Source: an uncultured virus (IMG/VR IMGVR_UViG_2908492839_000003)
Lineage: Duplodnaviria > Heunggongvirae > Uroviricota > Caudoviricetes
DNA: 64,000 nucleotides
Direction: 5' to 3' (one strand)
IMG/VR virus record: IMGVR_UViG_2908492839_000003
Location: 1-64,000 of that record
Each line of letters begins with the position of its first letter. The stretch's first letter is position 1. Under the pieces are notes generated by a model. It did no database searches. It was given only the letters and a program-made list of their open reading frames with translations, and was not told the origin of the DNA. Positions 1,392 to 46,067 of this stretch are shown piece by piece. The position numbers and the translations under genes were made by a program.

Positions 1392-1476
1392 GCGGACGTG
1401 GTGGAATTGGTAGACACACTGGATTTAGGTTCCAGCGCCGCAAGGCGTGAGAGTTCGAGTCTCTCCGTCCGCACCA
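1392..1476 (+). tRNA. tRNA-Leu(TAG); probable attL of prophage 1
   Basis: 85 nt, long variable arm, TAG anticodon, CCA; integrase stop 10 bp downstream. Confidence 0.96.
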
Positions 1477-1483
1477 CCTTCTA

Positions 1484-1496
1484 AATCAAGTGTTTA
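1484..1496 (+). promoter_or_regulatory. IHF-like site in att region
   Basis: AATCAAGTGTTTA matches WATCAANNNNTTR next to the tRNA 3' end. Confidence 0.5.
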
Positions 1497-2595
1497 CGAG
1501 CTTCAGCGGCCCTCCATGTAGATGCGCTGGATTATCAGCGTGAACAGAACGTGAAATGCGGCCTTCACGGACTTGATCAAGAACCCCAACAGCATCCCTT
1601 ACTCTGGCCGGAGCAAGGTGGGCATATCGTTCAGTCATCGCGACTGTCGAGTGTCCGAGCAGATCCCGAACATCCGCCAACGGAACGCCTGCGCTTACCA
1701 GCCATGCCGCGCAGGTGTGGCGCAGGTCGTGAATCGTAAAGTCCGCAATCTTCGCTGCCTGGCAGGCCTGCTTGAAGCCGGCTGATAGCGAAACCACTCG
1801 ATCACCGTTAGCGCGCGCAAAGACCCAGGGGCATTCCGGACTGGTCTCGGATCTGAATGCCATTCGTCGCTTTAACGCTGCCATCGCACCTTCGTTGATC
1901 GGTATGCTCCGGCGCTTGCCTGCCTTCGTGTGGGATGCCTCCAAGTAGATCAGTCGATTGGCGAAATCCACTCTGCGCCACTCCAGGCCAAGCATTTCCT
2001 CCCGCCGGCATCCGGTGTTTACCGCTAGGCGGATGAAATCCTCGAGCATCGGGCCAAACTTCTGGACGCGCGCGGCGCGGCACAGGGCCTCGACCTCCGC
2101 CCTGGTCAGCCAACGATCACGTCCCTCGGCTTCGCGCATCTTCCGCCCCTTCACCGGGTTAGGAAGGGCCCACTCCAGTTCTGTGTTGCAGTGGTTGATC
2201 GCCGCGGACAGTGCGGCGAGTTCTCGGTTGATGGTTGCCGGGGATGCGCCGGCATCCAACCGATGCGCTCCGTATCCCCGGATGTCCTGGCCCCCTAGAT
2301 CGTTGACCACGCGTCCGGCAAAATACTCGCGCAGCGGCTTTATGCGGTGCACGGTCGTTTCGTAGCTGCGCTGATGCTGGCGAGCGTGCTGCAGGTACGG
2401 AATGATCACCTCCTCAAAGGTCCTGGGCGGATTAACGCCCATTTCCTTTTCCTTCCACGCTTTCGCGCGCTCCTGTTGCTCTAGTGCTTTCGCCGCCGAG
2501 TAGTCGGCAGTTCCAGAAGAGCGTCTAACAAGCTTTCCTGTTGCTGATTTGAAAGAGATCCACCAGTAGGCGGAGTCGTTTCTCTTGTACGGCAT
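1486..2595 (-). CDS. int: Tyrosine recombinase (integrase)
   Basis: TGCRREE, HDLRHT, LLGH and RYAH catalytic motifs. Confidence 0.96.
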   Translation of the reverse strand: MPYKRNDSAYWWISFKSATGKLVRRSSGTADYSAAKALEQQERAKAWKEKEMGVNPPRTFEEVIIPYLQHARQHQRSYETTVHRIKPLREYFAGRVVNDLGGQDIRGYGAHRLDAGASPATINRELAALSAAINHCNTELEWALPNPVKGRKMREAEGRDRWLTRAEVEALCRAARVQKFGPMLEDFIRLAVNTGCRREEMLGLEWRRVDFANRLIYLEASHTKAGKRRSIPINEGAMAALKRRMAFRSETSPECPWVFARANGDRVVSLSAGFKQACQAAKIADFTIHDLRHTCAAWLVSAGVPLADVRDLLGHSTVAMTERYAHLAPARVRDAVGVLDQVREGRISRSVHADNPAHLHGGPLKLVNT

Positions 2596-2795
2596 ACTTC
2601 CTCCGGTACGCCGACCGCGTCGCGCATGCTAGCAGCGGCTTCCTCTTCAAGCATCTGTTCGAGCTTTTCCTTGTGGACTCGGATGGTCTTTTTGAACCTG
2701 ACCACCGGGATCAGCTTTTCGTCCGCGTAGCGGTACGCGGTCCTGCGGCTCACGCCGAGAATGCCGGCGGCCGCCTCAACTGAAATCAAAGACAT
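2481..2795 (-). CDS. xis: Excisionase-like HTH protein
   Basis: SVEAAAGILGVSRRTAYRY HTH_17-like motif; overlaps int 5' end. Confidence 0.8.
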   Translation of the reverse strand: MSLISVEAAAGILGVSRRTAYRYADEKLIPVVRFKKTIRVHKEKLEQMLEEEAAASMRDAVGVPEEVCRTRETTPPTGGSLSNQQQESLLDALLELPTTRRRKH

Positions 2796-2973
2796 AGCGA
2801 GACCTTGGCCGATCAACGGCATCGGGTTGGCGGGTAGAATTCGTGGAGGCTTGGCCGGGCAGGGCGCCCGCATCGGGCAATATGGGGGTTAACTGCTCGG
2901 TCAGGCCTTCTGGTAGGATTTGAACGCCCAGCCGGGCGGGCCTCAGGAAGAGGCCCTAGTGGGCCCGGCTGGG

Positions 2974-3444
2974 CTACTTGATCTTGATTTCGCCGTTGAA
3001 CGGGATAAGGAGTTCCCGGAACTCACGCATCTCAGGGACGGTTACGCCGTATCCGAGCAGTTCCCCGTCCTCTCTGATGAACATGTGGGCGTCGATGCGC
3101 AGCCTCAGATGCTCCAGGGCCTGAAGCCGTTCGGCGTGGCTGAGCGTCGACAGTAGCGACTTCCATGCGAACTCTGCGCTGCGATCCACATAGTCTCCGA
3201 ACTTGTCCCTCTCGAAAGAGCGGCGAGGAAACTTTCCCTTGTTCGTTTCTTCGAACATAGCGCGGAGGTTCGTGCCTTGCCTTGCTGATGGCCCTGACTC
3301 AAACAAATCCACCGCCAGTTTGCATCCATCCCAGGCAGCCTGTGTGTGGCTGTCCGAATATCGGATGTCGCCCCAGGCGTCAACATAGGCGGTCAGGTCG
3401 AATACGCCGGCCATGCGTTTCTCGAATTCCTCCCGTTTCATCAC
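2974..3444 (-). CDS. Phage hypothetical protein
   Basis: Coupled ORF in pL operon with RBS. Confidence 0.7.
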   Translation of the reverse strand: MMKREEFEKRMAGVFDLTAYVDAWGDIRYSDSHTQAAWDGCKLAVDLFESGPSARQGTNLRAMFEETNKGKFPRRSFERDKFGDYVDRSAEFAWKSLLSTLSHAERLQALEHLRLRIDAHMFIREDGELLGYGVTVPEMREFRELLIPFNGEIKIK

Positions 3445-3701
3445 TCCGTACCTCCAACCTTCCTGGCCTTTAGCATGGCGTCGGCGGTCTCATAAGCTAC
3501 TGCGGCCATGTCACTGATGACGTCACTTCCGCTATGAAACCTGCCGACCATGGTCTCGTTCCAAAGAACCTGCTGAAGCCCGCAGATAACTTGCGCCGCG
3601 AAGTAGTCTCGTAGCGACATTCCGCTTTGAGGCCCAAAGCCTTGGTTAGGAGTTCTGCTGTATGGCCTTGGAAACGCTGGCCCGCCATTGTCTTTCATCA
3701 T
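3441..3701 (-). CDS. Conserved phage protein (GGPAFP/GMSLRDYFAA family)
   Basis: Recognisable motifs including ADAMLKAR. Confidence 0.8.
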   Translation of the reverse strand: MMKDNGGPAFPRPYSRTPNQGFGPQSGMSLRDYFAAQVICGLQQVLWNETMVGRFHSGSDVISDMAAVAYETADAMLKARKVGGTE

Positions 3702-3991
3702 TCCCCACCTCCCATAGACTTTCCGATCTCGGCGGCGGTGCGCAGGATTGCTTTGCGTGTGGCGTATGCTTCTCCGTACGACAAAGCATCTGCGTTATAT
3801 GCCGGTCCTTTCAGGATTTCATGTAGACGTTTGTGCAGCCCTGTAGAGACCGCCAGCCTCAGCGCGTCGCCATCGTCATCACGCGGGTTCCAGTAATATT
3901 CAACCCCAGTACTGAAATTGATCGGTTCAGCCAAGACTGGATCAATCCCCGCCGCCCGCGCCGCCAGTTCGAGTAGTTCGCGGTCGTTCAT
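3698..3991 (-). CDS. Conserved phage protein
   Basis: MNDRELLELAARAAG...WNPRDDDGDALRLAV family motif. Confidence 0.8.
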   Translation of the reverse strand: MNDRELLELAARAAGIDPVLAEPINFSTGVEYYWNPRDDDGDALRLAVSTGLHKRLHEILKGPAYNADALSYGEAYATRKAILRTAAEIGKSMGGGE

Positions 3992-4527
3992 TGCGTTGCT
4001 CCTTTGAATAGGGTGCGCAGGTCTTCCATGACCTCAACCGCGACGCCCTCTTTGTTGTACTGGTCTGCATAGTCGTATGCGTTGAGGATTGCGCGCATGC
4101 CCAATAGAAGCGCCTCGTTCTCCGCCTTGAGCCTGTCGCGCTCTTCGGCTCTACGCTTGGCGGCCTCGCGCCAATACCCACATCCGCCCGGATGCTCGGT
4201 GCATGCGGATAGTTCGTCGCTCAGCCTGTCGATCTCGTCCAGCAGGGCGAGGACGGTCTTGGGGTTGGCGGCGGCCATGAATGCGGCGTTGTTTCGCAGT
4301 TCTTCTTCATGCATCCAGCTTTGCCAGCAGGCCATGGCTATCTGCTGCTGCGCTGCACCGTTCGTGAACTCAAGAGTTGGTCCTCCCACAATTGCCCAGT
4401 GGCGATTGCAACTCCACGGCCCAGGCGTTGCCGCCTTAGCCCGCCTCCGCAGCTCTGCGCGATCGGTCATGATCTGGTCCGCCTGCTTCACGCTTTCCAG
4501 CAGTTCGTTGAAAAGTGGCTCATCCAT
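3988..4527 (-). CDS. Ead/Ea22-like protein
   Basis: AKAATPGPW...NAAFMAAANPKTVLALLDE motif; start may be internal (MTDRAEL). Confidence 0.8.
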   Translation of the reverse strand: MDEPLFNELLESVKQADQIMTDRAELRRRAKAATPGPWSCNRHWAIVGGPTLEFTNGAAQQQIAMACWQSWMHEEELRNNAAFMAAANPKTVLALLDEIDRLSDELSACTEHPGGCGYWREAAKRRAEERDRLKAENEALLLGMRAILNAYDYADQYNKEGVAVEVMEDLRTLFKGATQ

Positions 4528-4804
4528 TCTGCTTCACCTCGATTCCGGCTTGCTGGAGGGCTTCGGTCACGCGCTCAAGGCAGTCGTTGAAGCCGGCAGA
4601 TCTTGGATTCTCATCGTCTCCGGTCGAGTTCAACGGATCGCGACGCTCCGGCAACTCCACCCTCAGAGCCGCGCGGCTGGCTTTCCAGGCCTGCCAGCAC
4701 TCATCTGTGCATCTGGCGGCGTAGTCGGTGACAACACCGTCACGATGAATCGGCATCCGGTGCTTGGTTGCCCACGCTTCAAACTCTTCTCTCATGTCAG
4801 GCAC
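4520..4804 (-). CDS. Phage hypothetical protein
   Basis: REEFEAW...WQAWKASRAAL motif. Confidence 0.75.
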   Translation of the reverse strand: MPDMREEFEAWATKHRMPIHRDGVVTDYAARCTDECWQAWKASRAALRVELPERRDPLNSTGDDENPRSAGFNDCLERVTEALQQAGIEVKQNG

Positions 4805-4992
4805 GGTCAGACTCCTCTGAACGGATCACCTTGTTCATATCTCGCTTCATCGCGTTGACCTTGTTCTGGAGTTCGTTCCACTCCGGGTCATTCAGCGAAA
4901 AGTCCTCCTGCTTGTGCATCTTCCGCTCCAGCCAGAGGGTGAAGCGCAACAGCATTCTGGTGAGTGGGAATCGGTTCACTGCTTGCTCCATC
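4797..4992 (-). CDS. Small phage hypothetical protein
   Basis: Coupled ORF; start uncertain. Confidence 0.5.
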
Positions 4993-5122
4993 TGCTCAAC
5001 TCCTGTCCTTTCAGTTCTGTCTGCTCGTAGAGGTGCTGGAAGTCCCCGACTATCCGGAAGATGCCGAAGACGATCAGCGCGATGACCAGCAGCGCGACCA
5101 GGGTTTCGTTTTCGTTGTCCAC
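4976..5122 (-). CDS. 48-aa single-TM protein (not in ORF track)
   Basis: GGAGG RBS plus GTG; MDNENETLVALLVIALIVFGIFRIVGDF... Confidence 0.65.
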   Translation of the reverse strand: MDNENETLVALLVIALIVFGIFRIVGDFQHLYEQTELKGQELSRWSKQ

Positions 5123-5270
5123 GGTTGGTCCTCCGGGGTCGGATTCGTTGGTTTGGGGCGGCGGGCTCCTGGCCCAAAATCGGCCAGTTTTTGTGCTGAA
5201 ACCCAGCAGGAATGCGGGTCTCAGCCTGACCGAAGGTGGCGGTGGCGATGCCGGGATTCCGGCATCGGTA

Positions 5271-5561
5271 TCAGTCTCCCGCAGCTTTGGCGATCAGGTG
5301 CATGAGCATTTCGCGCAGCACCTCGCGGTCCAGCACTTCGCGAGACCGCGCATACTCGTCTGCCTGACGCAACACTGCCTCTATCTCGATGTTGAACATC
5401 GGCGAGAGCACGTCTGGCTCGCACTGTTCGAGCAGCAACTGGATTGCGCGGGTCGGGTGCGCCATGGTGATGCCGAGCCAGTTGTAGGCCGAGGCAGTGC
5501 GGTAGTAGCGAAGGCCGGCGATCTCATGCCGGCGCGGCGGGCGGAAGGGTTTCGTGCGCAT
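5271..5561 (-). CDS. SOS-box-preceded hypothetical protein
   Basis: ORF MRTKPFRPP... directly downstream of LexA box. Confidence 0.7.
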   Translation of the reverse strand: MRTKPFRPPRRHEIAGLRYYRTASAYNWLGITMAHPTRAIQLLLEQCEPDVLSPMFNIEIEAVLRQADEYARSREVLDREVLREMLMHLIAKAAGD

Positions 5562-5599
5562 ATGCAATCCGGGTAGTGGGTAGCCCATTATCCGAATTG

Positions 5600-5615
5600 C
5601 TGTATATGCGTACAG
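5600..5615. promoter_or_regulatory. LexA (SOS) box
   Basis: CTGTATATGCGTACAG = CTG-N10-CAG, intergenic. Confidence 0.8.
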
Positions 5616-5675
5616 TGGTTGGCGATGGGTGGCTATGCTTGCTCGCTCAGCAGGGCGCGCAGGTCGTTCGCAATT

Positions 5676-5762
5676 TCAAGCATTTTCTTCGCGCGTGTCG
5701 TGGCTGCTCACCAGGCGCATCGAGCATCCGCAGAACGGACACGGTTTCAGTTCTTCAGCCAT
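5676..5762 (-). pseudogene. Truncated Lar-like (restriction alleviation) gene
   Basis: MAEELKPCPFCG then stop after 28 aa; second CxxC absent. Confidence 0.55.
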
Positions 5763-5952
5763 TGGACTTCCTCCTGCGGGAAAGACGCCAGAGCCGCCAG
5801 ATGACGATTGGTGCGCCTATGGAGACGGCAATCCAGTTTATCGGCCACCACCAGACCAATGATCTGCGGGTGATGCATTGGTCTCCGACGTAGACAGGAA
5901 GGCCGTGATAGGAGAAAAGGGTCAGGTATTTTTCGAACCTCAGAACAATCAT
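5755..5952 (-). CDS. Small membrane protein
   Basis: Trp-rich hydrophobic segment with basic tail; coupled to neighbours. Confidence 0.55.
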   Translation of the reverse strand: MIVLRFEKYLTLFSYHGLPVYVGDQCITRRSLVWWWPINWIAVSIGAPIVIWRLWRLSRRRKSNG

Positions 5953-6488
5953 TTGCTCTTCTCCGTATCGATCAGCGCTCTGCACACGGGGCAGTCCGGA
6001 TCGCGCGTTTCGTGCCCTTCGAGACCATCAGGGCAATGCCCGTTGTTCAGGTGCCCAACCTCCCCGGTAGCGAACCGGCGCAGGGTGTCGAGCGCGTCCG
6101 CGCTGACCGTCTTGCCGTTGAGGCGCGCCAGTTCGTCGAGGCAGGCGTTCCAAATTTCGCGCGCATGGTGGTAACTGACGTCACCGTCGCAACCGATTTC
6201 GCGCAACATCCTGCTGATACTGTCGCCGTTCGTCAGGCGCTCCGGCACAACCACCACCCTTGCGCGCAGTGTCGCGAGTTCGGCGCGAAGTTCCTCGATC
6301 TCCATCTCCATGCCGCCGCACTGCTGGCGGGCAGCATCTCCCTTTGCCGCCGCGTCCTCGGCCATGGCTAGTTTGGCGGCGAGGGCGTCGTAGTCGGAGG
6401 CCAGGACGACCTCATACCCCATTACTGCCTGCTCGCCCTGGGTCAAAGAGCGCATGCTCGGCACGTCGAGCCGCTCCACCTCACTCAT
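5949..6488 (-). CDS. Phage hypothetical protein
   Basis: VLASDYDAL motif; C-terminal CPxC. Confidence 0.7.
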   Translation of the reverse strand: MSEVERLDVPSMRSLTQGEQAVMGYEVVLASDYDALAAKLAMAEDAAAKGDAARQQCGGMEMEIEELRAELATLRARVVVVPERLTNGDSISRMLREIGCDGDVSYHHAREIWNACLDELARLNGKTVSADALDTLRRFATGEVGHLNNGHCPDGLEGHETRDPDCPVCRALIDTEKSK

Positions 6489-6765
6489 GACCTACCTCCT
6501 TGCTGGCTGCTCGGCGCCGCTTCATGATCTCTGCTACGCCGTCGGGGTACGTGACTGCCACGGCCCCGGCTGCGAGAGCTGCTGATTTCTTCGACAGGCA
6601 GATATCGAAGTGCTCCTTGATGGTCCCGGCATGCTGAATCCACTTCCGCTGAACACCGATCTTGTCTGCCATTGCGAGCAGTTCCTCGGTCGTGTCCGCG
6701 AGCATGTGGCACATCTTCATGCGGCCAAACGTTGCGTTCATGTCGTCGACGTAAACGGCCATCAC
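6481..6765 (-). CDS. DUF4031 family protein
   Basis: MAVYVDD...CHMLADTTEEL...HFDI. Confidence 0.8.
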   Translation of the reverse strand: MMAVYVDDMNATFGRMKMCHMLADTTEELLAMADKIGVQRKWIQHAGTIKEHFDICLSKKSAALAAGAVAVTYPDGVAEIMKRRRAASKEVGHE

Positions 6766-7817
6766 ACCCCCTCCTGGCCGGGCGCGGCTGCGAGCAGATC
6801 AGCAGCCAACAGGTACAGGACCGATTCTGCGATTCCGCTTTCACCATCGCGGGCGGCGGCGTAACCAGCGCCGTTTTTCAGGTTCATGACGACGATGCGC
6901 TCTGCTGAGCGTTCGATGCGCCACCCCTCCGGCACGCTGTGCTGAGCCTGGGCGGTATCCTCGGCCGCCTTCACGCATGACTTGATCGAGGCCAACAGGT
7001 AGGACCATGCGAAACCGCGCCCCTGGGACGGGCGCAAGCCGAGCGCACGCGCTACGTCATCGCGGCACTGTTTGTCCAGGTCGTGGAGTTGCTGAGCCTG
7101 GGCTACAGGAGCCGCGTAGAGTGGGTAAAACGTATCAGCGGCGCAATCCGGCACCTTCGTGCCCCACTGCACCATCCGCCGCATAGGCGTCTCGCAATAC
7201 TGCGCGAACCACCCAATCGGCTCCTGCTTCTCCAGATCGGCCAGCTTCGCCTCCAGCTCCGCCACCCTGGCCAGGGTGGCGTCGCGCTCTTGCTCAACGC
7301 GATTGAACATTTCTGCCCAACGGCCAACGCTGGCGGCATGCTGCGCGACGGTCATCAGTTCATCGTTTGCATTGAGCGGACCGCACTGATCGAGGACGAC
7401 AGGATTCGGATGCACGACGCGAGCCACCACCTCCGGCCGCTCCGCCTCTGCCTGCTCGGCCTGCGCCGGGGATGGTTGCGATTCAGCGATTACGCTAAGC
7501 ACGCGCCCCTCTTTATCCTGGCGGGTTACCGATACGATGGTGCCGGATTCGTTCTTGGTGACAACAACCTCGCCAGAGGGTTGCGCCAGGGCGGCGCGCT
7601 GGATCGTCTTCAGCGCTTTCCAGTCGTCTACGATGGTCCCGTCATCGCCATAGCGCCGGCGATCCTCAACCCACATGACGGCTCGGTCGAATACGTTCCA
7701 CGGAACCTGGACAATCGGGAACGGGCCCCAGCCGTCCCGCTCCCCCTGCGTGCCCTGCAAGTCGCGCTCATCCCCGCCTGCCTGCTCGGCCAGTGCCTTG
7801 TTCAGTTCCTTGCTCAC
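6762..7817 (-). CDS. Mosaic early phage protein
   Basis: Patchwork of ARVAELE/EPIGW/AQHSVPEGW modules typical of Ea-region genes. Confidence 0.7.
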   Translation of the reverse strand: MSKELNKALAEQAGGDERDLQGTQGERDGWGPFPIVQVPWNVFDRAVMWVEDRRRYGDDGTIVDDWKALKTIQRAALAQPSGEVVVTKNESGTIVSVTRQDKEGRVLSVIAESQPSPAQAEQAEAERPEVVARVVHPNPVVLDQCGPLNANDELMTVAQHAASVGRWAEMFNRVEQERDATLARVAELEAKLADLEKQEPIGWFAQYCETPMRRMVQWGTKVPDCAADTFYPLYAAPVAQAQQLHDLDKQCRDDVARALGLRPSQGRGFAWSYLLASIKSCVKAAEDTAQAQHSVPEGWRIERSAERIVVMNLKNGAGYAAARDGESGIAESVLYLLAADLLAAAPGQEGV

Positions 7818-7984
7818 AATCCCTTCTCCTGCCGCTCAATAGCGGCGATGAATTCGACAATCTCTGTGCTGAGGTCCATGGCGCCAATGCTGTTGTGGAC
7901 CCCGACGTAGCGGTTTGCTCGCTTCAGAAGGAGCACCGCCGTGCGCAGGCCGGAGTCACGCTTGGTCTTCGCCTTGACTTCCAT
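7814..7984 (-). CDS. Small hypothetical protein
   Basis: Coupled ORF, GGAGG RBS. Confidence 0.55.
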   Translation of the reverse strand: MEVKAKTKRDSGLRTAVLLLKRANRYVGVHNSIGAMDLSTEIVEFIAAIERQEKGL

Positions 7985-8159
7985 CACCCACCTCCGGGTA
8001 GACCAGAACACCCTCGGCGCCCTGGGCTTGGTTGATCGCTATCTGCCTCACCGCTCTCGCGAATAGCAGAATGTCGTCTGGGGTCATGAGCTGGCTTTCT
8101 TCAGGCCAGCCGGTGACCGTCACACCGCCCTGGCGGTGATTCGCTGTTAGCTGGTGCAT
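7956..8159 (-). CDS. Small hypothetical protein
   Basis: ORF with RBS in pL operon. Confidence 0.55.
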   Translation of the reverse strand: MHQLTANHRQGGVTVTGWPEESQLMTPDDILLFARAVRQIAINQAQGAEGVLVYPEVGDGSQGEDQA

Positions 8160-8177
8160 TGGGTTATTCCTGTTGGT

Positions 8178-8336
8178 TCAGGGATGGCAGACTTCGACGA
8201 CGCGGTGATAGTCGCCACGGAAGGGCATGGCCTTGTAGCCCTGGTTCATGGGGTAGATTCCCCAGGACTGGCGAGAGCAGGCCGCCATCATCGCCGCGTA
8301 CTTGATGACCTCGATGACGTCTTTCTTGATGTACAT
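8178..8336 (-). CDS. 52-aa hypothetical protein (not in ORF track)
   Basis: MYIKKDVIEVIKYAAMMAAC...; fills the gap in the operon, GAGG RBS. Confidence 0.55.
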   Translation of the reverse strand: MYIKKDVIEVIKYAAMMAACSRQSWGIYPMNQGYKAMPFRGDYHRVVEVCHP

Positions 8337-8346
8337 GACATGGCCC

Positions 8347-8682
8347 TCATGCACCCATCGCCGACTTGATCTGTGCCGAGTGGCTGCGGCTGACGGGAAT
8401 CCAGTTCTCGGTTCCGAGCAGCAGCACTTCGCCGGCCTGGGTGTCGTCGGGCCGGCGCTTGAACATGCTGATCAGAGACCGGCGAACCAGGGCCTTACGG
8501 TGGGTGCGGATGAACTCGGCGGAGAACTCTGTTTCCAGGGTCTTGAGCGCATCGCTCAGAACCAGAAAGCCTTCCCGGTAGTACGCGATGACGTACTTAT
8601 CCTCGGCGACGAAGTGGGTGATCTGCTCAACCGGGATTTCCTTGGAATGTTTGCCGCATGTGGCTTTGAGTACGGTTCTCAT
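8347..8682 (-). CDS. LytTR-domain DNA-binding protein
   Basis: AEDKYV, FIRTHRKALV and IPVSR motifs. Confidence 0.85.
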   Translation of the reverse strand: MRTVLKATCGKHSKEIPVEQITHFVAEDKYVIAYYREGFLVLSDALKTLETEFSAEFIRTHRKALVRRSLISMFKRRPDDTQAGEVLLLGTENWIPVSRSHSAQIKSAMGA

Positions 8683-9305: not shown

Positions 9306-9308
9306 GAT

Positions 9309-10061: not shown

Positions 10062-10069
10062 GATGGGCC

Positions 10070-11134: not shown

Positions 11135-11177
11135 GAGTGATCCTCGCCGCGCATGCGCAGCCAGTGAAGGGAGGGGG

Positions 11178-36754: not shown

Positions 36755-36755
36755 G

Positions 36756-37241: not shown

Positions 37242-37244
37242 TCC

Positions 37245-37658: not shown

Positions 37659-40371
37659 GCCGCTGCGCCAATACCCCGTCCGCGCGCGGATGCCAATCGA
37701 CACCTGGTTGCGTGGGAACGTGGCGAGCTATCGCCGTAATCGGCGTCGCATCCGCCGGGGTGAGTTGAATCCGGTGAGCATCTCGGTCAACGGGCGGCTC
37801 GTCCACTTCAGCCGCTGGCGCGTGACCGAGATCGGACCCGACGACGAGGTCCACATCTGGAAAGAGCCGAAGGGCATCGATCCGATCTCGATCACAATCG
37901 CCGCGATCAAGAGCGCCCAGGCGCTGTTTCGGTTGTTCATGCCTCGGATCAAGATGCCGAGCACCCAGAACCCGCGCCAGGGCGACCCGTTGGAGAGCGC
38001 GCGGACCAAGGCGAACCAGGTCCGCTACGGCGACATCGTTCGGGAGGCGTTTGGCCGGAACAAGATCTACCCCGATTACATCGTCCCGCAGTGCCGGCGT
38101 TTCCCCAGCGAGCGGACGGAGTGGGTCCAGATGCTGCTGGCGGTCGGGATCGGCGACTACGAGATCCACGCCAGCGACATCATGATCGGCGACACGCCGA
38201 TCATCTCGCTCGGTAATAACGCCCGCTACCACGTCTATCGGCCGGGTGAGAGCGTGGCCGGCGACCCGGCTGCGGAGTGGTGGCACTCGGTTGCCGAGGT
38301 CGGCGCCACGGCGACTGGCACCGCGGGGATCGACCTCCGGACTACCACCACGGTCGACCAGTCTGCAAACGCCCAGGCGTACCAGTTCGACGGCGACCTG
38401 GTCACCGTTCCCGTCGGGGCCGGACAGTTCCCCGCTGGCTGGGCTGCCGGGATGATCGTCCGTGTCGAGGTGATGTATCAGTACAACGTCACCGCCGGCA
38501 CCGGAGTGGGCGGCCGAGACACGATCTCCGGCCCACTCGCCCAGCTCGGCGCGTTCCCGGGTATGGTGATCGAAGTCACCGGGGCGAACGAAGGCATCTA
38601 CGTCGTCAACAGCTACACCGCGCCGGCAGGGTCTACGCCAGCGTCGATGACGCTCAATACCACCAGCGGTGCCCCCGTTTCTGGGTTGCAGTACGGCACG
38701 GGCTGGGCGTGTATTGGCTACCGCGGGCTCCGGTACCGGATCACCGCTGCGAGCTCCAGCCAATTGGCGTTGGACCGGTTGACCGATACCGGCTCCGACG
38801 ACACTGCCTGGCCTGGATTCGACTACATCGAGAGCAACTCGGCGGTCCTGAAACTGGACGGCTCCACGCTGGAGGGAGACTGGGCCGGCCCGTTCGCAGG
38901 GAACCCGGAGGCTGAGAAAGCCACCGCGATCGAGTTCGACTACATGTTCCCGCAAGGCCTCGGAGGGGTGGACAAGAAAGGGAGACTCTTCAACTGGCAG
39001 GTCGAGATCGAACTGCAGTGGCGCGACATGGCCCTGGCCGGCGCATGGACCTCCTACCGCGAGACCATCAGCCGAGCGACTCTGGATCAGATCGCGTTCA
39101 CGCGCCGGATCAACCTGCCGTATGCAATGCGCCCTGAGGTCAGGATGCGTCGGATCGGCGCGAAGTCAACCGAGACCACCATTCAGGACACCGTGCAGTG
39201 GTACGGCCTACGGACAAGGCTGGCGAGCCCGTCGTCCTACCCCGGAATGACCGTCATTTCAGTGGCGGTCGCCGGCGGCGGCCGCTTGGGTGCGCAGTCC
39301 GAGAATCGGGTCTCGGTGATCGGTACCCGGATACTCCCGACGCGCCAGAACGGCGCGTGGACGGAGCCGCGGCCTGTCCGGGATCTGGTGGCGCCGTTCT
39401 GCTACGTCGCAAAGTCCGTTGGCTACGAGGATGCAGACCTCGACCTGGTCGAGATCGATGCACTGGCCGATATCTGGGCGCAGCGAGGCGACACGTTCGA
39501 TCACCAGTACGAGTCGACGTCGACGGTGAAGGAAGTGCTGGGAGATATCCTCGCCGCGGGATTCTCTGAACTGACCATTGGGCGCGGGCGCCTGCGTCCG
39601 GTTCGCGATGGGCTGCGCGAGGGTGTCGATCATCTCTACACCACGCCGGCGGCGAATGGCGAGGTCTGGGCCTACTCGGCACAGAACATGAAGGGGTCGC
39701 TGTCCAGAACCTTCAGCACGCCAACTCCAGACGACAACGACGGTGTCGACGTCGAGCACATCGACGGCCGCACGTTCCAGAAAAAGACCGTTCCATGCCG
39801 CCTGCCTGGCCAGTTGGGGTTGAAGCCCGAGAAGGTCAGCGCGGTCGGGGTGAGCGACGTCAATAAGGCCTATCAGAAGGGCATGCGCCGAGCGGCAGAG
39901 CAGCGCTACCGGCGTTGGAACTACTCGTTCGAAACGGAACTCGACGCGAACAACAGCGGCTATCTCAGCCTGGCCGCTGTGTCCGACGACACGCCGGGGA
40001 GTGGCCAGAGCGCATTCCTGAAGTCGATCGCCCCTCGTGACACTGGCTTTGTATTGGAGAGCAGCGAGCCTCTGGACTGGGCTGGTATGGAAACGGCCAG
40101 GGTTGCGCTTCGCAAGCCGGATGGTCGAGTAGACGGCCCTTGGAGTGCATCGCGAATCGACGACCGCCGGATGCTGGTACCGTCACTCGGTTTCGTCCCT
40201 GACCTGTCCTGGACGCGCGAGCCGCCGCATCTCCTGTTCGGTCGCATCCATCCAGTGCTGATAACCGGTGTGGACCCGAAGGGCCTCGAGAGCTGCTCCG
40301 TCCGCGGCGTGAACTACGACGAGAGGCTCTACGTCAACGACAACGCCACCGCGCCGCCTGAGGCGGTCTGA
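37624..40371 (+). CDS. Central tail tip protein (J-like)
   Basis: 915 aa; position; NYDERLY end. Confidence 0.85.
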   Translation: MIEFFANKLDPEPLRQYPVRARMPIDTWLRGNVASYRRNRRRIRRGELNPVSISVNGRLVHFSRWRVTEIGPDDEVHIWKEPKGIDPISITIAAIKSAQALFRLFMPRIKMPSTQNPRQGDPLESARTKANQVRYGDIVREAFGRNKIYPDYIVPQCRRFPSERTEWVQMLLAVGIGDYEIHASDIMIGDTPIISLGNNARYHVYRPGESVAGDPAAEWWHSVAEVGATATGTAGIDLRTTTTVDQSANAQAYQFDGDLVTVPVGAGQFPAGWAAGMIVRVEVMYQYNVTAGTGVGGRDTISGPLAQLGAFPGMVIEVTGANEGIYVVNSYTAPAGSTPASMTLNTTSGAPVSGLQYGTGWACIGYRGLRYRITAASSSQLALDRLTDTGSDDTAWPGFDYIESNSAVLKLDGSTLEGDWAGPFAGNPEAEKATAIEFDYMFPQGLGGVDKKGRLFNWQVEIELQWRDMALAGAWTSYRETISRATLDQIAFTRRINLPYAMRPEVRMRRIGAKSTETTIQDTVQWYGLRTRLASPSSYPGMTVISVAVAGGGRLGAQSENRVSVIGTRILPTRQNGAWTEPRPVRDLVAPFCYVAKSVGYEDADLDLVEIDALADIWAQRGDTFDHQYESTSTVKEVLGDILAAGFSELTIGRGRLRPVRDGLREGVDHLYTTPAANGEVWAYSAQNMKGSLSRTFSTPTPDDNDGVDVEHIDGRTFQKKTVPCRLPGQLGLKPEKVSAVGVSDVNKAYQKGMRRAAEQRYRRWNYSFETELDANNSGYLSLAAVSDDTPGSGQSAFLKSIAPRDTGFVLESSEPLDWAGMETARVALRKPDGRVDGPWSASRIDDRRMLVPSLGFVPDLSWTREPPHLLFGRIHPVLITGVDPKGLESCSVRGVNYDERLYVNDNATAPPEAV

Positions 40372-40437
40372 CCGCCAACACATCACCCCCATGAAGAACC
40401 CTGCCCTGTGCGGGGTTTTTGCTTTCTAGGAGCAGCC

Positions 40438-42423
40438 ATGCCCGTCCGTTACAACACCATGAACCCGGTCGAGCCGAATGGGTCTTCCGACTTCCGTGAT
40501 CTGTCTGACAACACTGCGAACCTTGACCTTGCGATGAATGGCCAGGCCCTGACCTGGACGAATCGAATTGGAGGTGAAGAGAAGTCTTGGCGGGGCATTG
40601 TGCAGTGGATTGCCGATTGGCTCGCCGCGCAGGGATTCGAGCCAGGCGTGCTGGAGTACGTCGACGGCTCCCCGCTGACCGTAGATCGTCCGACCCAACT
40701 GATCCAGCGTGACGGGAATCTCTACAGCGTCAAGCGCCCGGCATCGTTCCCCGTTGAGCTGACCGGGAACTGGGCCACCGACCAGACCCTGCTGGTTGCC
40801 CAGGTCGACCGCTCGCTGCGTCAGCAACTGGCTGACCCGCTGGACCCGACAGCTGGCGCAGCTCTGGTTGCGCGGGCATCCCGGCACCTCAGCGACCTGA
40901 CAGGCCTGATCGGCCTCATCGGTCGATATGCCGGTGACATGGTTCAGACCGCAGCATACTGGGGGGGATGGTCTGTCTATGCCGATGGTCCGGTCGGCGG
41001 GGGAACGTACGTATGGGACCCGGCGCGCCCGCGGTCAGAGCACAACGCGGGAAACGTCATCAGCCCGACCGTGCCCTGGGATGGGCTGGAATCTACGTTC
41101 GCAGCGTACATCGCAAAGACCGGAGAAACCGAACCATCAGCCCTTGGTTGCTGGGTTCTTGTTCCGGAACACGGTCGCGAGTTCAACGTTTTGCAGTGGG
41201 GCGCGAAGAACAATGCAACCGTCAACGGCGCAAACGACGCAATGATTCAGCCTCTCCTCAACTATGTCGAGGGCGCCAAGTCTGGAGGGTTCGGCGGGGT
41301 TGTGAACTTCCCCAAAGGAACATATCGGTTTAATACGTACTTTAATGTACGAGATAGGACCGCGATACGTGGCGAGGGGACGCATGCAACAATTATTCAG
41401 TTCCCCGGCTCAGCTGTTGGTAATTGCATTACATTAGGTCCAACTGGACCCAATCATCCAATTAACCCTAATGGTCATTGGGTATTTGGGGCTAGGCTGG
41501 AAAATTTAGCAATTTCTTGTTCAAACGTATACAAAGGAAGCGAGCGCTCTGTTGTCTATACTGATGGGGCGCATGAGCATAGTGGACTGTTTAATGTTGT
41601 TGTGAGGGATTTTACTTCTTGGGGTGTTAACTATAACACCGGCAATGGAGGTCCTGCTCTATTCGAAGTGAGCGACTGCGAATTCTATCTTTCAGGCACT
41701 GCGCCAGCGACTGGAACCAAGCGAGGCATAGTGAGTAACGCTGGAGGTGCTCTATTCCTCATGCGGCATGTTACGATCACAGGTGCACCCGCAAATAAAC
41801 TAGATCAGGGTGTTGTGATGCTGAAGGACAATCTTGTGGCTCAAGGGCTGCACTTTGAAAACTCCGGATCAGGAATCAGCCTGTCTCAGAATGACCCAGC
41901 AAATCCTAGAGTTAATTCTATAGTCGGAGTTACCGGCAACGCTACCGTTTCATCTGGCGGCCTTGTTGATATCTCTAGTTCTTTTGAGGGTTCTGTTCAG
42001 GTGTCCGCAGTTGTAAATAAATCAATATCTACAACTGGACTTATAACTCTTATTAATAGAAGGGTGAATGATAGGTATTTGGATTCTCCGGTATCCTCTT
42101 ACTCGTATCCAAGTGCATACTCCCCCGGCGAGGCAATAAGTCAGGGAAGGGTTAATGTGTCTGGCGCAGTCGCAACTGTTGCTAAGTCTGTAGGTGTTTC
42201 TTTTACTGCAAGCAGGACAGGCGTTGGAGTCGTTCGCATCACGCTCTCTTCAGCAATGAATGATACCGACTACACAGTAACTCCAAGCGCCCGGCCATCT
42301 GGTGGTGGAGCCATGTTCGTTGAGTTCCTCCCGGTCAGCACTACAGCGTTCGACATAAAGACCTACAACCAGGCAGGAACCGCGACTGACCCTGCTTCGA
42401 TCTGGTTTACCCTGCTTCGCTAG
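40438..42423 (+). CDS. Tailspike/receptor-binding protein, probable beta-helix
   Basis: YNTMNPVEPNGS head; NVLQWGA...FPKGTY...GEG pectate-lyase-like start; GC drop after about 41200. Confidence 0.85.
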   Translation: MPVRYNTMNPVEPNGSSDFRDLSDNTANLDLAMNGQALTWTNRIGGEEKSWRGIVQWIADWLAAQGFEPGVLEYVDGSPLTVDRPTQLIQRDGNLYSVKRPASFPVELTGNWATDQTLLVAQVDRSLRQQLADPLDPTAGAALVARASRHLSDLTGLIGLIGRYAGDMVQTAAYWGGWSVYADGPVGGGTYVWDPARPRSEHNAGNVISPTVPWDGLESTFAAYIAKTGETEPSALGCWVLVPEHGREFNVLQWGAKNNATVNGANDAMIQPLLNYVEGAKSGGFGGVVNFPKGTYRFNTYFNVRDRTAIRGEGTHATIIQFPGSAVGNCITLGPTGPNHPINPNGHWVFGARLENLAISCSNVYKGSERSVVYTDGAHEHSGLFNVVVRDFTSWGVNYNTGNGGPALFEVSDCEFYLSGTAPATGTKRGIVSNAGGALFLMRHVTITGAPANKLDQGVVMLKDNLVAQGLHFENSGSGISLSQNDPANPRVNSIVGVTGNATVSSGGLVDISSSFEGSVQVSAVVNKSISTTGLITLINRRVNDRYLDSPVSSYSYPSAYSPGEAISQGRVNVSGAVATVAKSVGVSFTASRTGVGVVRITLSSAMNDTDYTVTPSARPSGGGAMFVEFLPVSTTAFDIKTYNQAGTATDPASIWFTLLR

Positions 42424-42489
42424 GCTGGCCGGTCAGGTCTGGGTATGCCTATAATCCGCCCCTGCCAAACGGACACGGAAGGGGGGGAT

Positions 42490-43497
42490 GTGAATTTTCA
42501 AGCTATTCAGGCGCTTAGGGGTATCGCAGCAGTCTTGGTGCTCCTGCTTCATGCTCGCATCGCCGTGTGGTGGGCAAAGGACCTGTGGCATATCCCATTC
42601 GTCAGTTCACACGGGATGGTCGGCGTCAGTCTGTTCTTTTGTATTTCTGGCTTCATCATCGCCCACGTGGTATCGCGCAACAGCTTTGAGCCAGTTAGCT
42701 TTATGGTTAAGCGCATCTGGCGCATAGTGCCTATCTACTGGATAGTTACCACGTTGGCTCTGGTTTTTTGGTACACAAGTCGCTTTTGGCGATCAGATAT
42801 GGACAGGCTAGGTCTTGTTGGTGTGCTAAAAAGCTATTTGATATTTCCTCAGTCTGGATTCCCTCTAGTAAATCCAGGCTGGTCCCTTGAGCATGAAATT
42901 ATTTTCTATGTCCTCGCGGCGCTTATTGTGCCGTTTGCCAGGCTCCCTGGCCTATTTTTAGCGTTGATAGGGTTGTGGGTGTGTGGGATTTTCTATAAAG
43001 GGTGGGACTACCATCTGTTTTCGTATTCACAGCTTTACTTTGCTTTTGGGATAGTCGCTTATTGGTGCCGAGGGGTGGCGGTTAAGTTTTTGGCTCCAGT
43101 TGCGCTAGTATCTGTTCCTCTTGCCATCTGCTCGATGTACAAAGTTATAAATATCAGTCCTACTGCAAATGTGGCTCTTACTGCTATAGGATGTTCGTCT
43201 CTAATAGCTACTCTAGTTTCAATGGAGAACAATGGCCTAAAGTTCCCTAAATGGCTAGTGTCTATCGGTGATGCTTCATATTCAATTTATATTGTCCACT
43301 GGATCGTGCTTCCGTGGGTTGGTTTTGTCGCCTACAGAGTAGGAGGGTCCATGGAGGCATGGCGATGGATCGCGTTTTGCGTTTGTATGCTTGTGGGCTT
43401 TGCTAGTCGTAAATATCTAGAAATTCCGCTGATGAACGTGAAATTCATACACAGGATTGGAAGAAGGCGAAGGGCTCCAGAGAGCGCAACAGCCTGA
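42490..43497 (+). CDS. Acyltransferase_3 (OafA/Oac-like) O-antigen acetylase candidate
   Basis: IQALRGIAA, GVSLFFCISGFI, RIWRIVP, WSLEHE, IGDASYSIY; about 10 TM; own TATAAT at 42449. Confidence 0.88.
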   Translation: MNFQAIQALRGIAAVLVLLLHARIAVWWAKDLWHIPFVSSHGMVGVSLFFCISGFIIAHVVSRNSFEPVSFMVKRIWRIVPIYWIVTTLALVFWYTSRFWRSDMDRLGLVGVLKSYLIFPQSGFPLVNPGWSLEHEIIFYVLAALIVPFARLPGLFLALIGLWVCGIFYKGWDYHLFSYSQLYFAFGIVAYWCRGVAVKFLAPVALVSVPLAICSMYKVINISPTANVALTAIGCSSLIATLVSMENNGLKFPKWLVSIGDASYSIYIVHWIVLPWVGFVAYRVGGSMEAWRWIAFCVCMLVGFASRKYLEIPLMNVKFIHRIGRRRRAPESATA

Positions 43498-43510
43498 CAG
43501 TTTCATGATT

Positions 43511-43538
43511 AAAAGCCCGCCAAGTGCGGGCTTTTTTA
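43511..43538 (+). terminator. Rho-independent terminator
   Basis: AAAAGCCCGC-CAAGT-GCGGGCTTTTTT. Confidence 0.8.
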
Positions 43539-43553
43539 TGCCCGGAGAACCAC

Positions 43554-44183
43554 ATGCCCATCACTGAGCAGCAGTTGCTGCATATCCTCCCGAACGCCGG
43601 CCCTCGAGCCGGCGTTTTTGTTGGTGCGCTGAATCGCGGGATGACGCGGTTCGGTATCACGTCGCCTGTGCGCGCGGCGGCGTTCCTCGCCCAAGTTGGC
43701 CACGAAAGCGGCCAGTTGACCCACCTGGTGGAGAACCTCAACTACAGCGCCCGCGGCCTGGCTGCGACCTGGCCGAGCCGGTACCTCGGCGCCGACGGGC
43801 AGCCCAACGCCCTGGCGCAGCGCCTGGCGCGCAACCCCCGAGCCATCGCCAACAACGCCTACGCCTCGCGCAACGGCAATGGCGACGAGGCATCGGGCGA
43901 CGGCTGGCGGTACCGCGGGCGCGGGCTGCTACAGATCACCGGCCGGTCGAACTACCGCGCCGCCGGCACCGGGCTGGGCCAGCCGCTGGAGCAGGAACCC
44001 GAACTGCTCGAGCAGCCGGAGTGGGCGGCGATCTCGGCGGCCTGGTGGTGGGCCAGTCACGGCTTGAACGAACTGGCCGACCGCGGCGAGTTCGCCGCCA
44101 TCACCCGTCGGATCAACGGCGGCACGAACGGCCAGGCGGAGCGCCTGGAACTGTGGGAGCGGGCGAAGAGGGTGCTGTCGTGA
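43554..44183 (+). CDS. GH19 endolysin
   Basis: FLAQVGHES, YRGRGLLQITG, TRRINGG. Confidence 0.95.
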   Translation: MPITEQQLLHILPNAGPRAGVFVGALNRGMTRFGITSPVRAAAFLAQVGHESGQLTHLVENLNYSARGLAATWPSRYLGADGQPNALAQRLARNPRAIANNAYASRNGNGDEASGDGWRYRGRGLLQITGRSNYRAAGTGLGQPLEQEPELLEQPEWAAISAAWWWASHGLNELADRGEFAAITRRINGGTNGQAERLELWERAKRVLS

Positions 44184-44548
44184 TCTCCGCCCGTGTTGTC
44201 TCGATCGCGCTGGCCTGCCTGGTGCTGCTCGGCCTCGGCGCCGCCGGTGGTGTCTGGCTCGGCGCCCGGCACTACCGACCGCAGCTCGATGCTGCGCTGG
44301 CAGATCTGGTCGCCTGCCGCGCCGCCCGGGGAGAGTTGGAATCCGCAGTGGCGGAGCAGGTCCGGCAGGTTGCCGCGCTGCGTCAGGCTGATGAACAGCG
44401 CGCCCGGGATGCAGCCCAGGCGCTGGAGCAGGGACGACAGCAGGCCGCCGAGCGATATGCCGCGGCACAGCGCCTGCTGTACCAGCGAACCGCCGGCGAG
44501 CAGTGTGCGGCCGCCGATGCGGTCATCGATCAGGAGTTGGGCCTATGA
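44180..44548 (+). CDS. i-spanin (Rz-like)
   Basis: N-terminal TM plus coiled coil. Confidence 0.8.
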   Translation: MISARVVSIALACLVLLGLGAAGGVWLGARHYRPQLDAALADLVACRAARGELESAVAEQVRQVAALRQADEQRARDAAQALEQGRQQAAERYAAAQRLLYQRTAGEQCAAADAVIDQELGL

Positions 44549-44874
44549 AGCTGCAGGCGTGGCGAAAGACTGCAGGTGCAGCGATTTTCGGCAGGTGCAG
44601 CCAAAAAGCGCAGGTGGTGCAGGTGCTGGGGTTGGTGTTCGCGCTGGCGGGATGCGCCGGCCGGCAGGAAGCCGAGCCGCGCACGGTGCGCGTAGAGGTG
44701 CCGGTGGCGGTGCCTTGCCGAGTGCCGGCGGTGGAGGTGCCGGCCTGGGCAACCGCTGGGCTGAGGAAGGGCGACGATATCCAGACCAAGGTCCGTGCGT
44801 TGCTCGCCGAACGCTTGCAGAGGATCGGATACGAGGCGCAGCTCCTGGCTGCGAACCAGGCCTGCCAGGATTAG
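44545..44874 (+). CDS. o-spanin lipoprotein (Rz1-like)
   Basis: LAGC lipobox, Pro/Val-rich. Confidence 0.78.
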   Translation: MKLQAWRKTAGAAIFGRCSQKAQVVQVLGLVFALAGCAGRQEAEPRTVRVEVPVAVPCRVPAVEVPAWATAGLRKGDDIQTKVRALLAERLQRIGYEAQLLAANQACQD

Positions 44875-44909
44875 GAGTAGACTACGGCCTTTTCCTACGG
44901 AGTTCGGTG

Positions 44910-45176
44910 ATGCTGGTGATTCGGCTGAAAAGCAAGTGGACCCTGAAGTTGGACCGCCAGATAGGAAGCTCCGGCAAACACGGGATATGGGCATTCCACT
45001 GCTCTGAAAGCACTTTCGCGCCGTCTTCAAACGATCTGCGGCGCACCGCGGCCATCCTTCCAGCCGAGCCCAAAGAGGGCCAGGCAGTGGAAGTTTCGAT
45101 CTGCGAAAGCCCGCACTCGCCGGATGGATGGATCGCCGTCGGCTCAGGCGTAGCAGCCTACGAAGCGGAGCGCTGA
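44910..45176 (+). CDS. 88-aa hypothetical protein
   Basis: GGAG RBS; MLVIRLKSKW... Confidence 0.65.
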   Translation: MLVIRLKSKWTLKLDRQIGSSGKHGIWAFHCSESTFAPSSNDLRRTAAILPAEPKEGQAVEVSICESPHSPDGWIAVGSGVAAYEAER

Positions 45177-45179
45177 AAG

Positions 45180-45692
45180 TCAGGCCCACCGCCATGGCCG
45201 GAAGTCGCTTGGGATCTGCTCGACAAGCAGCAGCGTGCCGCCAGCGTCGAGCTCGATCTCCAGACCGCGCACAACGCCGGCGCGCTCAAGCGCCTGGCCC
45301 ATGCGCAAGTATGTTATCCCGTCCAGGGGATCCCGGCCGAGGTAGCCCAGCCGCTGTCGTCCGGGTGCGGGCCCGTGGTAGATGCCCTCGTCGTCCACGC
45401 TCCCGACGACGGCGCCGCCGTCGAGCACGTCGTAGCAGCAGTCCGAGCAGTAGTGCGTCTCGCGCGTGATGCCGTGCTCGATCGCCCATGAGTACATGCC
45501 GAGGGCGTCGGTGACCATGTCGTGCCTGTCCTGCAGGCCCACGACGCCGCACTGGTAGAGCTCGTTGGCCTCGGCGACCAGGTACAGGTACTGCTCATCC
45601 GCGGCGTACAGCCAGGCAGCATGCTGCCGCATCGCTGCAAGCCATTGTGTTACGCGCTGATGATGGCAATGCCTAGGGTCGGAGTAGGACAT
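45180..45692 (-). CDS. SOS-box-preceded hypothetical protein (170 aa)
   Basis: GGAG RBS, MSYSDPRHC...; LexA box abuts the CATAAT -10. Confidence 0.75.
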   Translation of the reverse strand: MSYSDPRHCHHQRVTQWLAAMRQHAAWLYAADEQYLYLVAEANELYQCGVVGLQDRHDMVTDALGMYSWAIEHGITRETHYCSDCCYDVLDGGAVVGSVDDEGIYHGPAPGRQRLGYLGRDPLDGITYLRMGQALERAGVVRGLEIELDAGGTLLLVEQIPSDFRPWRWA

Positions 45693-45728
45693 GGGAATCT
45701 CCGGCGGACGAGTGGGCCGGAAATTATG

Positions 45729-45744
45729 CTGTATGAATATCCAG
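45729..45744. promoter_or_regulatory. LexA (SOS) box
   Basis: CTGTATGAATATCCAG. Confidence 0.85.
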
Positions 45745-45807
45745 TATTCGAGAGCGTCCGACGAGCGGAGAGTGGCGCTCAGGCATGTCTGGAGGAGGGC
45801 GAAATCA

Positions 45808-45879
45808 TTTCCGCAATTTAAGAATCGACCCAGGCAGCAAGCGGCATCCATCGAAGGAAAAATGTCTGAATTGCGGAAA
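45808..45879. repeat. 11-bp inverted repeat, probable integrase arm sites
   Basis: TTTCCGCAATT (45808) and AATTGCGGAAA (45869) next to the tRNA fragment. Confidence 0.55.
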
Positions 45880-45924
45880 CGAAATCCAGCCGCAACCCGC
45901 ATAAACCTTGAATTCAGCGATAGA

Positions 45925-45982
45925 CTTGAAAACCGTCGAAGGGGAGACTCTTCCGTGAGTTCGAATCTCACCGCCTCCGCCA
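45925..45982 (+). pseudogene. 3' half of tRNA-Ser(TGA) (att site)
   Basis: Starts at anticodon loop CTTGAAA; variable arm, T arm and GCCTCCGCCA present; no 5' half upstream. Confidence 0.9.
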
Positions 45983-46067
45983 TATAACCTTCTGTTTTCA
46001 TTGATGTTTTCATTCGATCCACTCTCAGGAGTGAACGATTTGGGAACAAACTGGGAACGAGGCGCAG

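Follow-up and report, generated by a model that had tools for sequence, protein, structure and literature searches.

Inversions of chromosome segments by recombination between resident prophages are known from Streptococcus pyogenes, Escherichia coli O157 and Xylella. In these, related prophages in inverted orientation flank the segment, and recombination leaves hybrid prophages at both of its ends in addition to the inversion itself. Here, we analyze a possible further case, found in the viral record IMGVR_UViG_2908492839_000003. The record is 79,803 bases long, and is the sole sequence available for its source genome; its first 64 kb (64,000 bases) is the stretch analyzed, and is referred to below as the ‘window’. 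Two prophages lie in it, one behind the other. The first, a lambdoid siphovirus that we call ‘prophage 1’, begins in an intact transfer RNA (tRNA) gene, tRNA-Leu(TAG), and ends in a 3' fragment of another, tRNA-Ser(TGA). The second, ‘prophage 2’, is related to phage phiCTX and begins in the same fragment. We describe evidence that the two ends of prophage 1 belong to different integrase classes, and we consider it probable, at roughly 0.6, that the element is a real product of recombination between two prophages, accompanied by inversion of the chromosome between them. Compared with the cases mentioned above, only one of the two sets of hybrid junctions is visible here; the parents would have occupied different tRNA genes and used integrases of different classes; and the left and right prophage attachment sites that remain (attL and attR) are non-cognate.

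Large inversions are also documented in Pseudomonas aeruginosa. Strains of clone C and PA14 carry megabase-scale inversions with break points in duplicated accessory DNA; the repeats concerned are rrn operons, copies of insertion sequences or transposons and, in strain K9, a phage-like element of 4.7 kb with one copy on either side of the inversion (PMC10040652). These cases differ from the present one, in that none involves a pair of distinct full-length prophages at the tRNA sites concerned here, PA1796.1-.4 and PA2603.1. As far as the texts were available, we found no description in the literature of an inversion between prophages at these two sites in P. aeruginosa; one may exist in print.

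Three groups of phages and prophages provide the closest comparisons. D3 and its relatives (‘leucine-type’, below) resemble the left part of prophage 1: they have the same 61-base identity at the attachment site, the same class of integrase, and the same P' arm with CGTGAA repeats. They differ in that the cognate attR of such a phage, composed of a D3-type P arm, the core and the host tRNA-His, is not on the record. A prophage of Pseudomonas paraeruginosa ATCC 9027, and that of the viral record G010, resemble the right part (‘serine-type’, below); their attR is identical to that of the window, and in G010 it likewise forms a junction with a phiCTX-like prophage. Both have a cognate serine-type integrase at the left, where the window has tRNA-Leu and a D3-type integrase. 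Finally, phiCTX itself resembles prophage 2 in its 30-base attachment core, its integrase region and the collinear order of its genes; the target of prophage 2, in contrast to the intact tRNA-Ser, is a 3' fragment that is another prophage's attR.

Attachment sites of two integrase classes

The left end of prophage 1 is a canonical D3-type attL in tRNA-Leu(TAG). (The coordinates of this and other features are collected in Table 1.) Sixty-one bases that begin within the tRNA are identical in the window, in the empty site of ATCC 9027, and in the phage attachment sites (attP) of D3 and BUCT566. In the same alignment the flanks of this stretch are host-type on the left and phage-type on the right, and the annotation of D3 (NC_002484) places a 61-base AttP at the corresponding position. 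Homology to phage records of the D3 family starts inside the tRNA, at 1418, and the integrase-proximal region matches these at 91.3-98.1% identity. A first-pass annotation of the window had drawn attention to the integrase adjoining an intact tRNA-Leu, and to CGTGAA repeats nearby; both are as it described, and the repeats, near 1541-1571, are also present in the P' arms of the D3 and BUCT566 sites. On the host side, folD lies upstream of the tRNA-Arg/His/Leu cluster, and the stretch with tRNA-Arg and tRNA-His (1134..1337) is 96% identical to the ATCC 9027 locus. This tRNA locus is listed as PA1796.1-PA1796.4, and a prophage with homology to phi297 is reported to reside there (PMC4243448).

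The cognate partner of this attL is absent from the record. A search of the window for the final 26 bases of tRNA-Leu, with as many as three mismatches allowed, finds a single copy, and thus no duplicate. BLAST searches of the whole 79.8 kb with the P arms of D3 and BUCT566, and with the host DNA downstream of tRNA-Leu, find neither an attR of the leucine type nor a second tRNA-His, the gene that follows tRNA-Leu in the empty site of ATCC 9027. Apart from the three tRNA genes at the left edge (tRNA-Arg, tRNA-His and tRNA-Leu), ARAGORN and Rfam make no tRNA call in the window, and ARAGORN finds no additional tRNA in the full 79,803 bases. The first-pass annotation had reported both absences, of the tRNA-Leu duplicate and of the second tRNA-His, and in this it was correct; to be added is that one tRNA-His does precede tRNA-Leu.

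The right end is a genuine attR, generated by crossover in the anticodon loop of the chromosomal tRNA-Ser, and of the class of phages VB_EV13, Fyn8 and PA8. Each of these phages has the same 230-base arm followed by a tRNA-Ser 3' fragment directly upstream of its own integrase gene (unannotated in PA8), and this arrangement identifies the fragment as their attP. Most of the arm is covered by these three phages only (four records, among 89 in the phage collection with any match). The arm is preceded by a gene for a protein of 171 amino acids, which in serine-type prophages, and in some others, is the final gene ahead of the attachment site. The arm contains the motif TTTCCGCAA twice, in inverted orientation (45808-45816 and 45871-45879), as the first-pass annotation had seen. 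These are exactly the two copies in the window, against a chance expectation of 0.39; two copies were reached in 4 of 100 shuffles. The free phages, like the attL of ATCC 9027, have two more copies on their P' arm, in direct orientation, and the motifs are likely to be integrase arm sites.

The tRNA-Ser fragment, reported in the first-pass annotation as extending to 45985, is real; its limits are 45925, in the anticodon loop, and 45982, at the CCA. Its bases beyond the crossover core identify its origin. Past these 15 bases, the tRNA 3' end takes another form in all three free phages, with compensating changes in the T-stem, and the window has instead the version found in the attR of ATCC 9027 and in G010. 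The ATCC 9027 prophage, which is of the same class, illustrates the expected arrangement: its attL is a complete tRNA-Ser with a phage-type 3' part, and its attR, 49.7 kb downstream, has a host-type 3' part identical to that of the window. The host tRNA-Ser(TGA), both in ATCC 9027 and in contigs of two sequencing runs (X3 and X5), has a 3' part identical to the fragment. Since the contigs of X3 and X5, followed to the left of 45925, enter the 5' half of the gene, the 3' part in the window is that of the host tRNA-Ser. An exact scan of genome contigs with the fragment returned ATCC 9027 only; its relatives are other species, at 84-85% identity. The notion that the tRNA-Ser piece might be an attP relic carried within the phage, one of the alternatives offered in the first-pass annotation, is largely refuted by these host-type polymorphisms. 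As a practical rule, host-type versus phage-type bases past the crossover core distinguish an attR from a carried attP.

The ends of prophage 1 thus belong to different integrase classes. A single integration leaves the same core at both ends, and because the cores here differ (61 bases of tRNA-Leu at one end, 15 of tRNA-Ser at the other), they stem from two separate events. The integrases that Pfam finds in the window are of the D3 and phiCTX types only. An attL of the VB_EV13/Fyn8/PA8 type with its cognate integrase was not found at the left end, and no serine-type P' arm occurs anywhere on the record.

How unusual this combination is can be judged from a census anchored on the 171-amino-acid protein gene. 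In viral contigs this has 91 relatives, many of them situated at the very end of their record, and the best 80 were kept (G010 and 79 others). The leucine-type integrase module is missing from every one of the best 80 of the 91. That such modules can be detected in these records is shown by a control, the serine-type integrase region, which 43 of the 80 contain: in 26 of them the match is at 97-98% and mostly sits at the extreme end of the record, and in 17 it is at 65-66%, indicating a related integrase. The region is unmatched in the other 37, and 21 of these are less than 90% complete by estimate. Within the best 80 relatives, then, the 171-amino-acid protein gene accompanies at least two classes of integrase, and never the leucine type. 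G010 itself has the serine-type integrase at its left end and nothing of window positions 1-3000. One member of the 65-66% group (G011) has a tRNA-Cys near its end; another record (G013) has a tRNA-Cys too, and has no match to the right end of the window.

The tRNA-Ser fragment has a second role, absent from the first-pass annotation: it serves as attR of prophage 1 and, at the same time, as attL of prophage 2. Homology to phiCTX starts at 45956, which corresponds to the annotated attP core of that phage (NC_003278), and the same 30 bases occur in a contig of run X1 between the phiCTX arm and host downstream DNA, where they constitute the phiCTX attR. Of the stretch 46000-64000, phiCTX covers 75%, collinearly and at 95.7% identity. 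The attR, the ctx end and the cos end of prophage 2 lie beyond the record, which halts at the terminase stop codon. The order siphovirus prophage, attR(Ser), phiCTX-like prophage is seen also in G010, and is bridged by a single contig of 62.8 kb in run X1. The tandem of a siphovirus and a phiCTX-like prophage at tRNA-Ser is, therefore, a natural one.

Routes to a prophage with non-cognate ends

Recombination between two resident prophages would proceed as follows. Parent A, a phage with a D3-type integrase, would have been integrated in tRNA-Leu(TAG), at PA1796.1-PA1796.4. Parent B, of the VB_EV13/Fyn8 type, would have been integrated at the anticodon loop of tRNA-Ser(TGA), PA2603.1, in tandem with a phiCTX-like, P2-type prophage using the last 30 bases of the same tRNA. 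One homologous crossover of the RecA type, within the phage body common to the two and on the same chromosome, would then yield the order observed: folD, the tRNAs, attL(Leu), the left arm of A, the right arm of B, attR(Ser) and the phiCTX-like prophage. The crossover point would lie somewhere in the body, 2596..45177. The reciprocal hybrid at the other end of the inversion would consist of an intact tRNA-Ser, a serine-type integrase, the body, a leucine-type P arm, a tRNA-Leu fragment and the second tRNA-His. The first-pass annotation had proposed just such a hybrid, and its reading as a whole is partly supported: the half-sites are indeed of the tRNA-Leu and tRNA-Ser classes, and the crossover and large inversion it invoked fit the geometry of the loci and the common structural module.

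The substrate for such a crossover is plain to see. The structural module of prophage 1 (about 18 kb, from about 23 to 41 kb of the window) is about 95-96% identical to that of the leucine-type phages Haboob, Marin and BUCT566, and about 95-96% identical to that of the serine-type phages Fyn8 and VB_EV13. The right arms of the leucine- and serine-type phages run parallel to window position 45177, and diverge beyond it. Two such prophages in one cell would present many kilobases of homology to the recombination machinery.

The geometry of the loci would determine the outcome. folD, which we take to be PA1796, lies upstream of PA1796.1-.4, and so gene numbers ascend along the tRNA-Leu cluster. 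Along tRNA-Ser in ATCC 9027 the order is rarA, cysG, tusD/C/B, tRNA-Ser, gacA, uvrC, pgsA; gacA is PA2586 (PMC6605022) and tRNA-Ser is PA2603.1 (PMC4243448), and so gene numbers descend. The two loci appear, then, to be inverted relative to each other, and about 800 gene numbers apart. With the loci in opposite orientation, a single crossover would invert the segment between them, roughly 1 Mb, without deletion. If, as we assume, the replication terminus of strain PAO1 lies between the two tRNA loci, the inverted segment would be roughly centered on the terminus, and the inversion would probably be well tolerated. A host gene downstream of tRNA-Ser was tried as a marker in related genomes and set aside; it belongs to a multi-copy family, and the loci that it matched lacked the tRNA.

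Several observations weigh against this account. The orientation in P. aeruginosa is deduced from the synteny of ATCC 9027, from published numbers for two genes, and from the assignment of folD as PA1796; in complete genomes of three related species, the relative orientation of the loci is opposite in two and the same in one. No near-identical parental phage emerged from searches of the phage collection or from scans of viral contigs with words from the repressor and the tailspike. Five of the seven records from the exact-word scans, together with G010, were compared with the window by BLAST, and all are mosaics that match piecewise, none of them a parent; as a consequence, no position can be assigned to the crossover. 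The record does not include the reciprocal junction, nor the attR of prophage 2 with the host DNA behind it. The hybrid was not encountered in any other record or run, and in the sole other viral record with an attR(Ser)/phiCTX junction, G010, the integrase is the normal serine-type one. Finally, the linkage of the left end to the right comes from one assembly, of unknown sequencing technology, and none of the indexed runs is its source; the best of them contains 0.72 of the sampled words. Contigs of runs X1, X2, X3 and X5 were compared with window positions 27401-47400; these bear out the tRNA-Ser sequence of the host and the tandem, rather than the linkage of the ends.

These last points are shared by the strongest competing explanation, an assembly chimera, which we hold to be unlikely though of real weight. 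According to this, the source genome has two normal prophages, one in tRNA-Leu and the other in tRNA-Ser beside the phiCTX-like prophage, and the assembler switched from one to the other inside their common stretch. Two related prophages in one genome are the very setting in which assemblers join the wrong arms; with about 18 kb of structural genes common to both classes at about 95-96%, long shared words are likely; and the hybrid is known from one record, whose technology and run are missing as noted. Assemblers usually break at such repeats, however, instead of joining across them. The 79.8 kb record contains no N and is continuous through both prophages. The record starts exactly at the stop codon of the host folD gene, and its end, at 79803, coincides exactly with that of the P2-type large terminase gene of prophage 2, a point between this gene and the one for the portal. 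Because both ends are gene stop codons, the source contig must be longer than the record; it might end within the portal gene. G010 also starts and stops at stop codons, and we infer that both records were excised at gene boundaries from longer host contigs. A real inversion would leave the same repeat structure as a chimera, moreover, so the sequence itself favors neither.

An improbable alternative is that some other rearrangement joined the two loci: a translocation or duplication by which the tRNA-Ser region came to adjoin a prophage in tRNA-Leu, or a history of several steps in which the reciprocal product was later lost. The record does not fix the number of steps, and large inversions and rearrangements of accessory DNA of several kinds are documented in P. 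aeruginosa (PMC10040652). Against this, a single reciprocal crossover accounts for every feature seen. Simple deletion between the loci was considered and rejected: they appear to be inverted, and such a deletion would cost about 800 numbered genes (PA1797 to PA2603). Very improbable, lastly, is nesting, in which a leucine-type phage with a tRNA-Ser-like site in its right arm was invaded by a phiCTX-like phage and the tRNA-Leu attR lies beyond prophage 2, for although the far end of prophage 2 is off the record and integrase modules are clearly exchanged among these phages, the 16 host-specific bases, which are in none of the three free phages, would require a captured attR-like site rather than an old attP, the phage-type copy of the tRNA differs from the phiCTX core at 4 of 30 positions and would be a poor target for phiCTX, and the leucine-type integrase is missing from all 80 of the other records in the census.

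Were inversion between prophages the correct explanation, this would be a clean case in P. aeruginosa of related prophages at different tRNA genes inverting roughly a megabase, one in which polymorphisms in the tRNA fragments provide molecular proof of the origin of each half-site. It would bear on three wider matters: the ability of tandem and related prophages to destabilize chromosome order, the existence of complete-looking prophages unable to excise, and the presence in provirus catalogues of hybrids that were never phages. Should the record be a chimera, such a catalogue would do well to mark it as an artefact. The hybrid looks intact, with genes for repressor, replication, terminase, head, tail and lysis. 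Its leucine-type integrase has no cognate attR to work with, and site-specific excision should consequently fail unless the inversion reverts. By analogy with lateral transduction, which is known from staphylococcal prophages, the induced hybrid could conceivably replicate in situ and package DNA rightwards, starting at its own packaging site and crossing attR(Ser) into the phiCTX-like prophage and on into the chromosome towards gacA. We regard this as a quite improbable outcome; if it did occur, the inversion would have turned an ordinary prophage into a high-frequency mobilizer of a converting phage and of core genes.

Gene content and variable segments

Table 1. Features of the window, with positions numbered from its first base
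Feature	Position	Strand	Basis or remark
Host folD	1..855	-	Pfam THF_DHG_CYH domains
Host tRNA-Arg(TCT)	1134-1210	+	ARAGORN and Rfam; upstream of attachment site
Host tRNA-His(GTG)	1262-1337	+	ARAGORN and Rfam; upstream of attachment site
Intact tRNA-Leu(TAG), attL of prophage 1	1392-1476	+	ARAGORN, Rfam, alignment; 5' part is host
Prophage 1	about 1421-45955		Bounded by attL(Leu) and attR(Ser)
attL core region, 61 bases	1421-1481	+	Host attachment site (attB) = D3/BUCT566 attP
D3-type tyrosine integrase (leucine type)	1486-2595	-	Pfam Phage_integrase and Int_N; adjoins tRNA-Leu
Putative excisionase open reading frame	2481-2873		D3 integrase/excisionase annotation
Body of prophage 1 (lambdoid siphovirus)	2596..45177		Pfam; includes recombination and replication genes, cro, holins, portal, head, tail
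cI, prophage 1	16289-16966		Pfam
Terminase, prophage 1	23627-25090		Pfam
Tape measure, prophage 1	33759-36293		Pfam
J, prophage 1	37624-40371		Pfam
Tailspike, pectate-lyase-like domain, prophage 1	40408-42423		Pfam
Acyltransferase, prophage 1	42445-43497		Pfam Acyl_transf_3
Endolysin, prophage 1	43524-44183		Pfam
Gene for 171-amino-acid protein	45180-45695	-	No Pfam or PADLOC hit; present in VB_EV13, Fyn8, PA8
P arm of serine-type attachment site	45696..45924	+	Alignments
attR crossover core, 15 bases, anticodon loop and stem	45925-45939	+	Common to host tRNA-Ser(TGA) and serine-type attP
Host-specific part of tRNA-Ser, 16 bases	45940-45955	+	In neither serine-type attP nor phiCTX
Attachment core of phiCTX-like prophage 2 (its attL), 30 bases	45956..45985	+	3' end of tRNA-Ser
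phiCTX-type integrase, prophage 2	46104-47291	-	Pfam; integrase region 98.7% identical to phiCTX
Prophage 2, phiCTX-like (P2 type)	45956..64000, on to 79803		Pfam Ogr_Delta, Phage_CP76, tail genes

In prophage 1, a 29-base repeat of the AGGTGGGGCCAGAGG... type occurs in six copies between 17919 and 18310, mostly spaced 78 or 39 bases apart. The repeats lie inside an open reading frame (ORF; 17597-18820) with a DnaT DNA-binding domain, and resemble origin iterons, which in lambda, too, are embedded in the gene for the replication initiator. At the right end of the prophage, contigs of run X3 align to 44180-45750 as many short pieces, with two alternative versions over 44984-45164. This suggests that the X3 isolate carries two related prophages with a common lysis and right-arm region.

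Two places in prophage 2 are of note. Next to its phiCTX-type integrase lies a gene (47494-49539, minus strand) for a 681-amino-acid protein with a C-5 cytosine methyltransferase domain. The interval 47484-49412 does not align to the phiCTX-like prophage of G010, and part of it, 48890-49398, matches a place in the first prophage of that record. PADLOC, applied to 14 unexplained ORFs, returned methyltransferase matches only, all for one ORF. The second place is an island of low G+C content (54500-58700; 41-47%, against about 63%), which falls where the alignment to the phiCTX-like prophage of G010 is interrupted. Its ORFs (55244-55711, 55845-56264, 56343-57347, 57340-57936 and 58030-58596) have no Pfam match above threshold and none in PADLOC; the last has a weak match to TSC22, under the curated Pfam cut-off. 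The island is a candidate for a variable cargo or defence hotspot of P2-type phages.

A further stretch of lower G+C content (about 50-57%) in prophage 1, 40408-43497, comprises the tailspike and acyltransferase genes. An exact word from the tailspike recovers one other viral record (G015), 99.2% identical to the window over 40633-43629. The stretch is likely to be an O-antigen-modifying, serotype-converting module.

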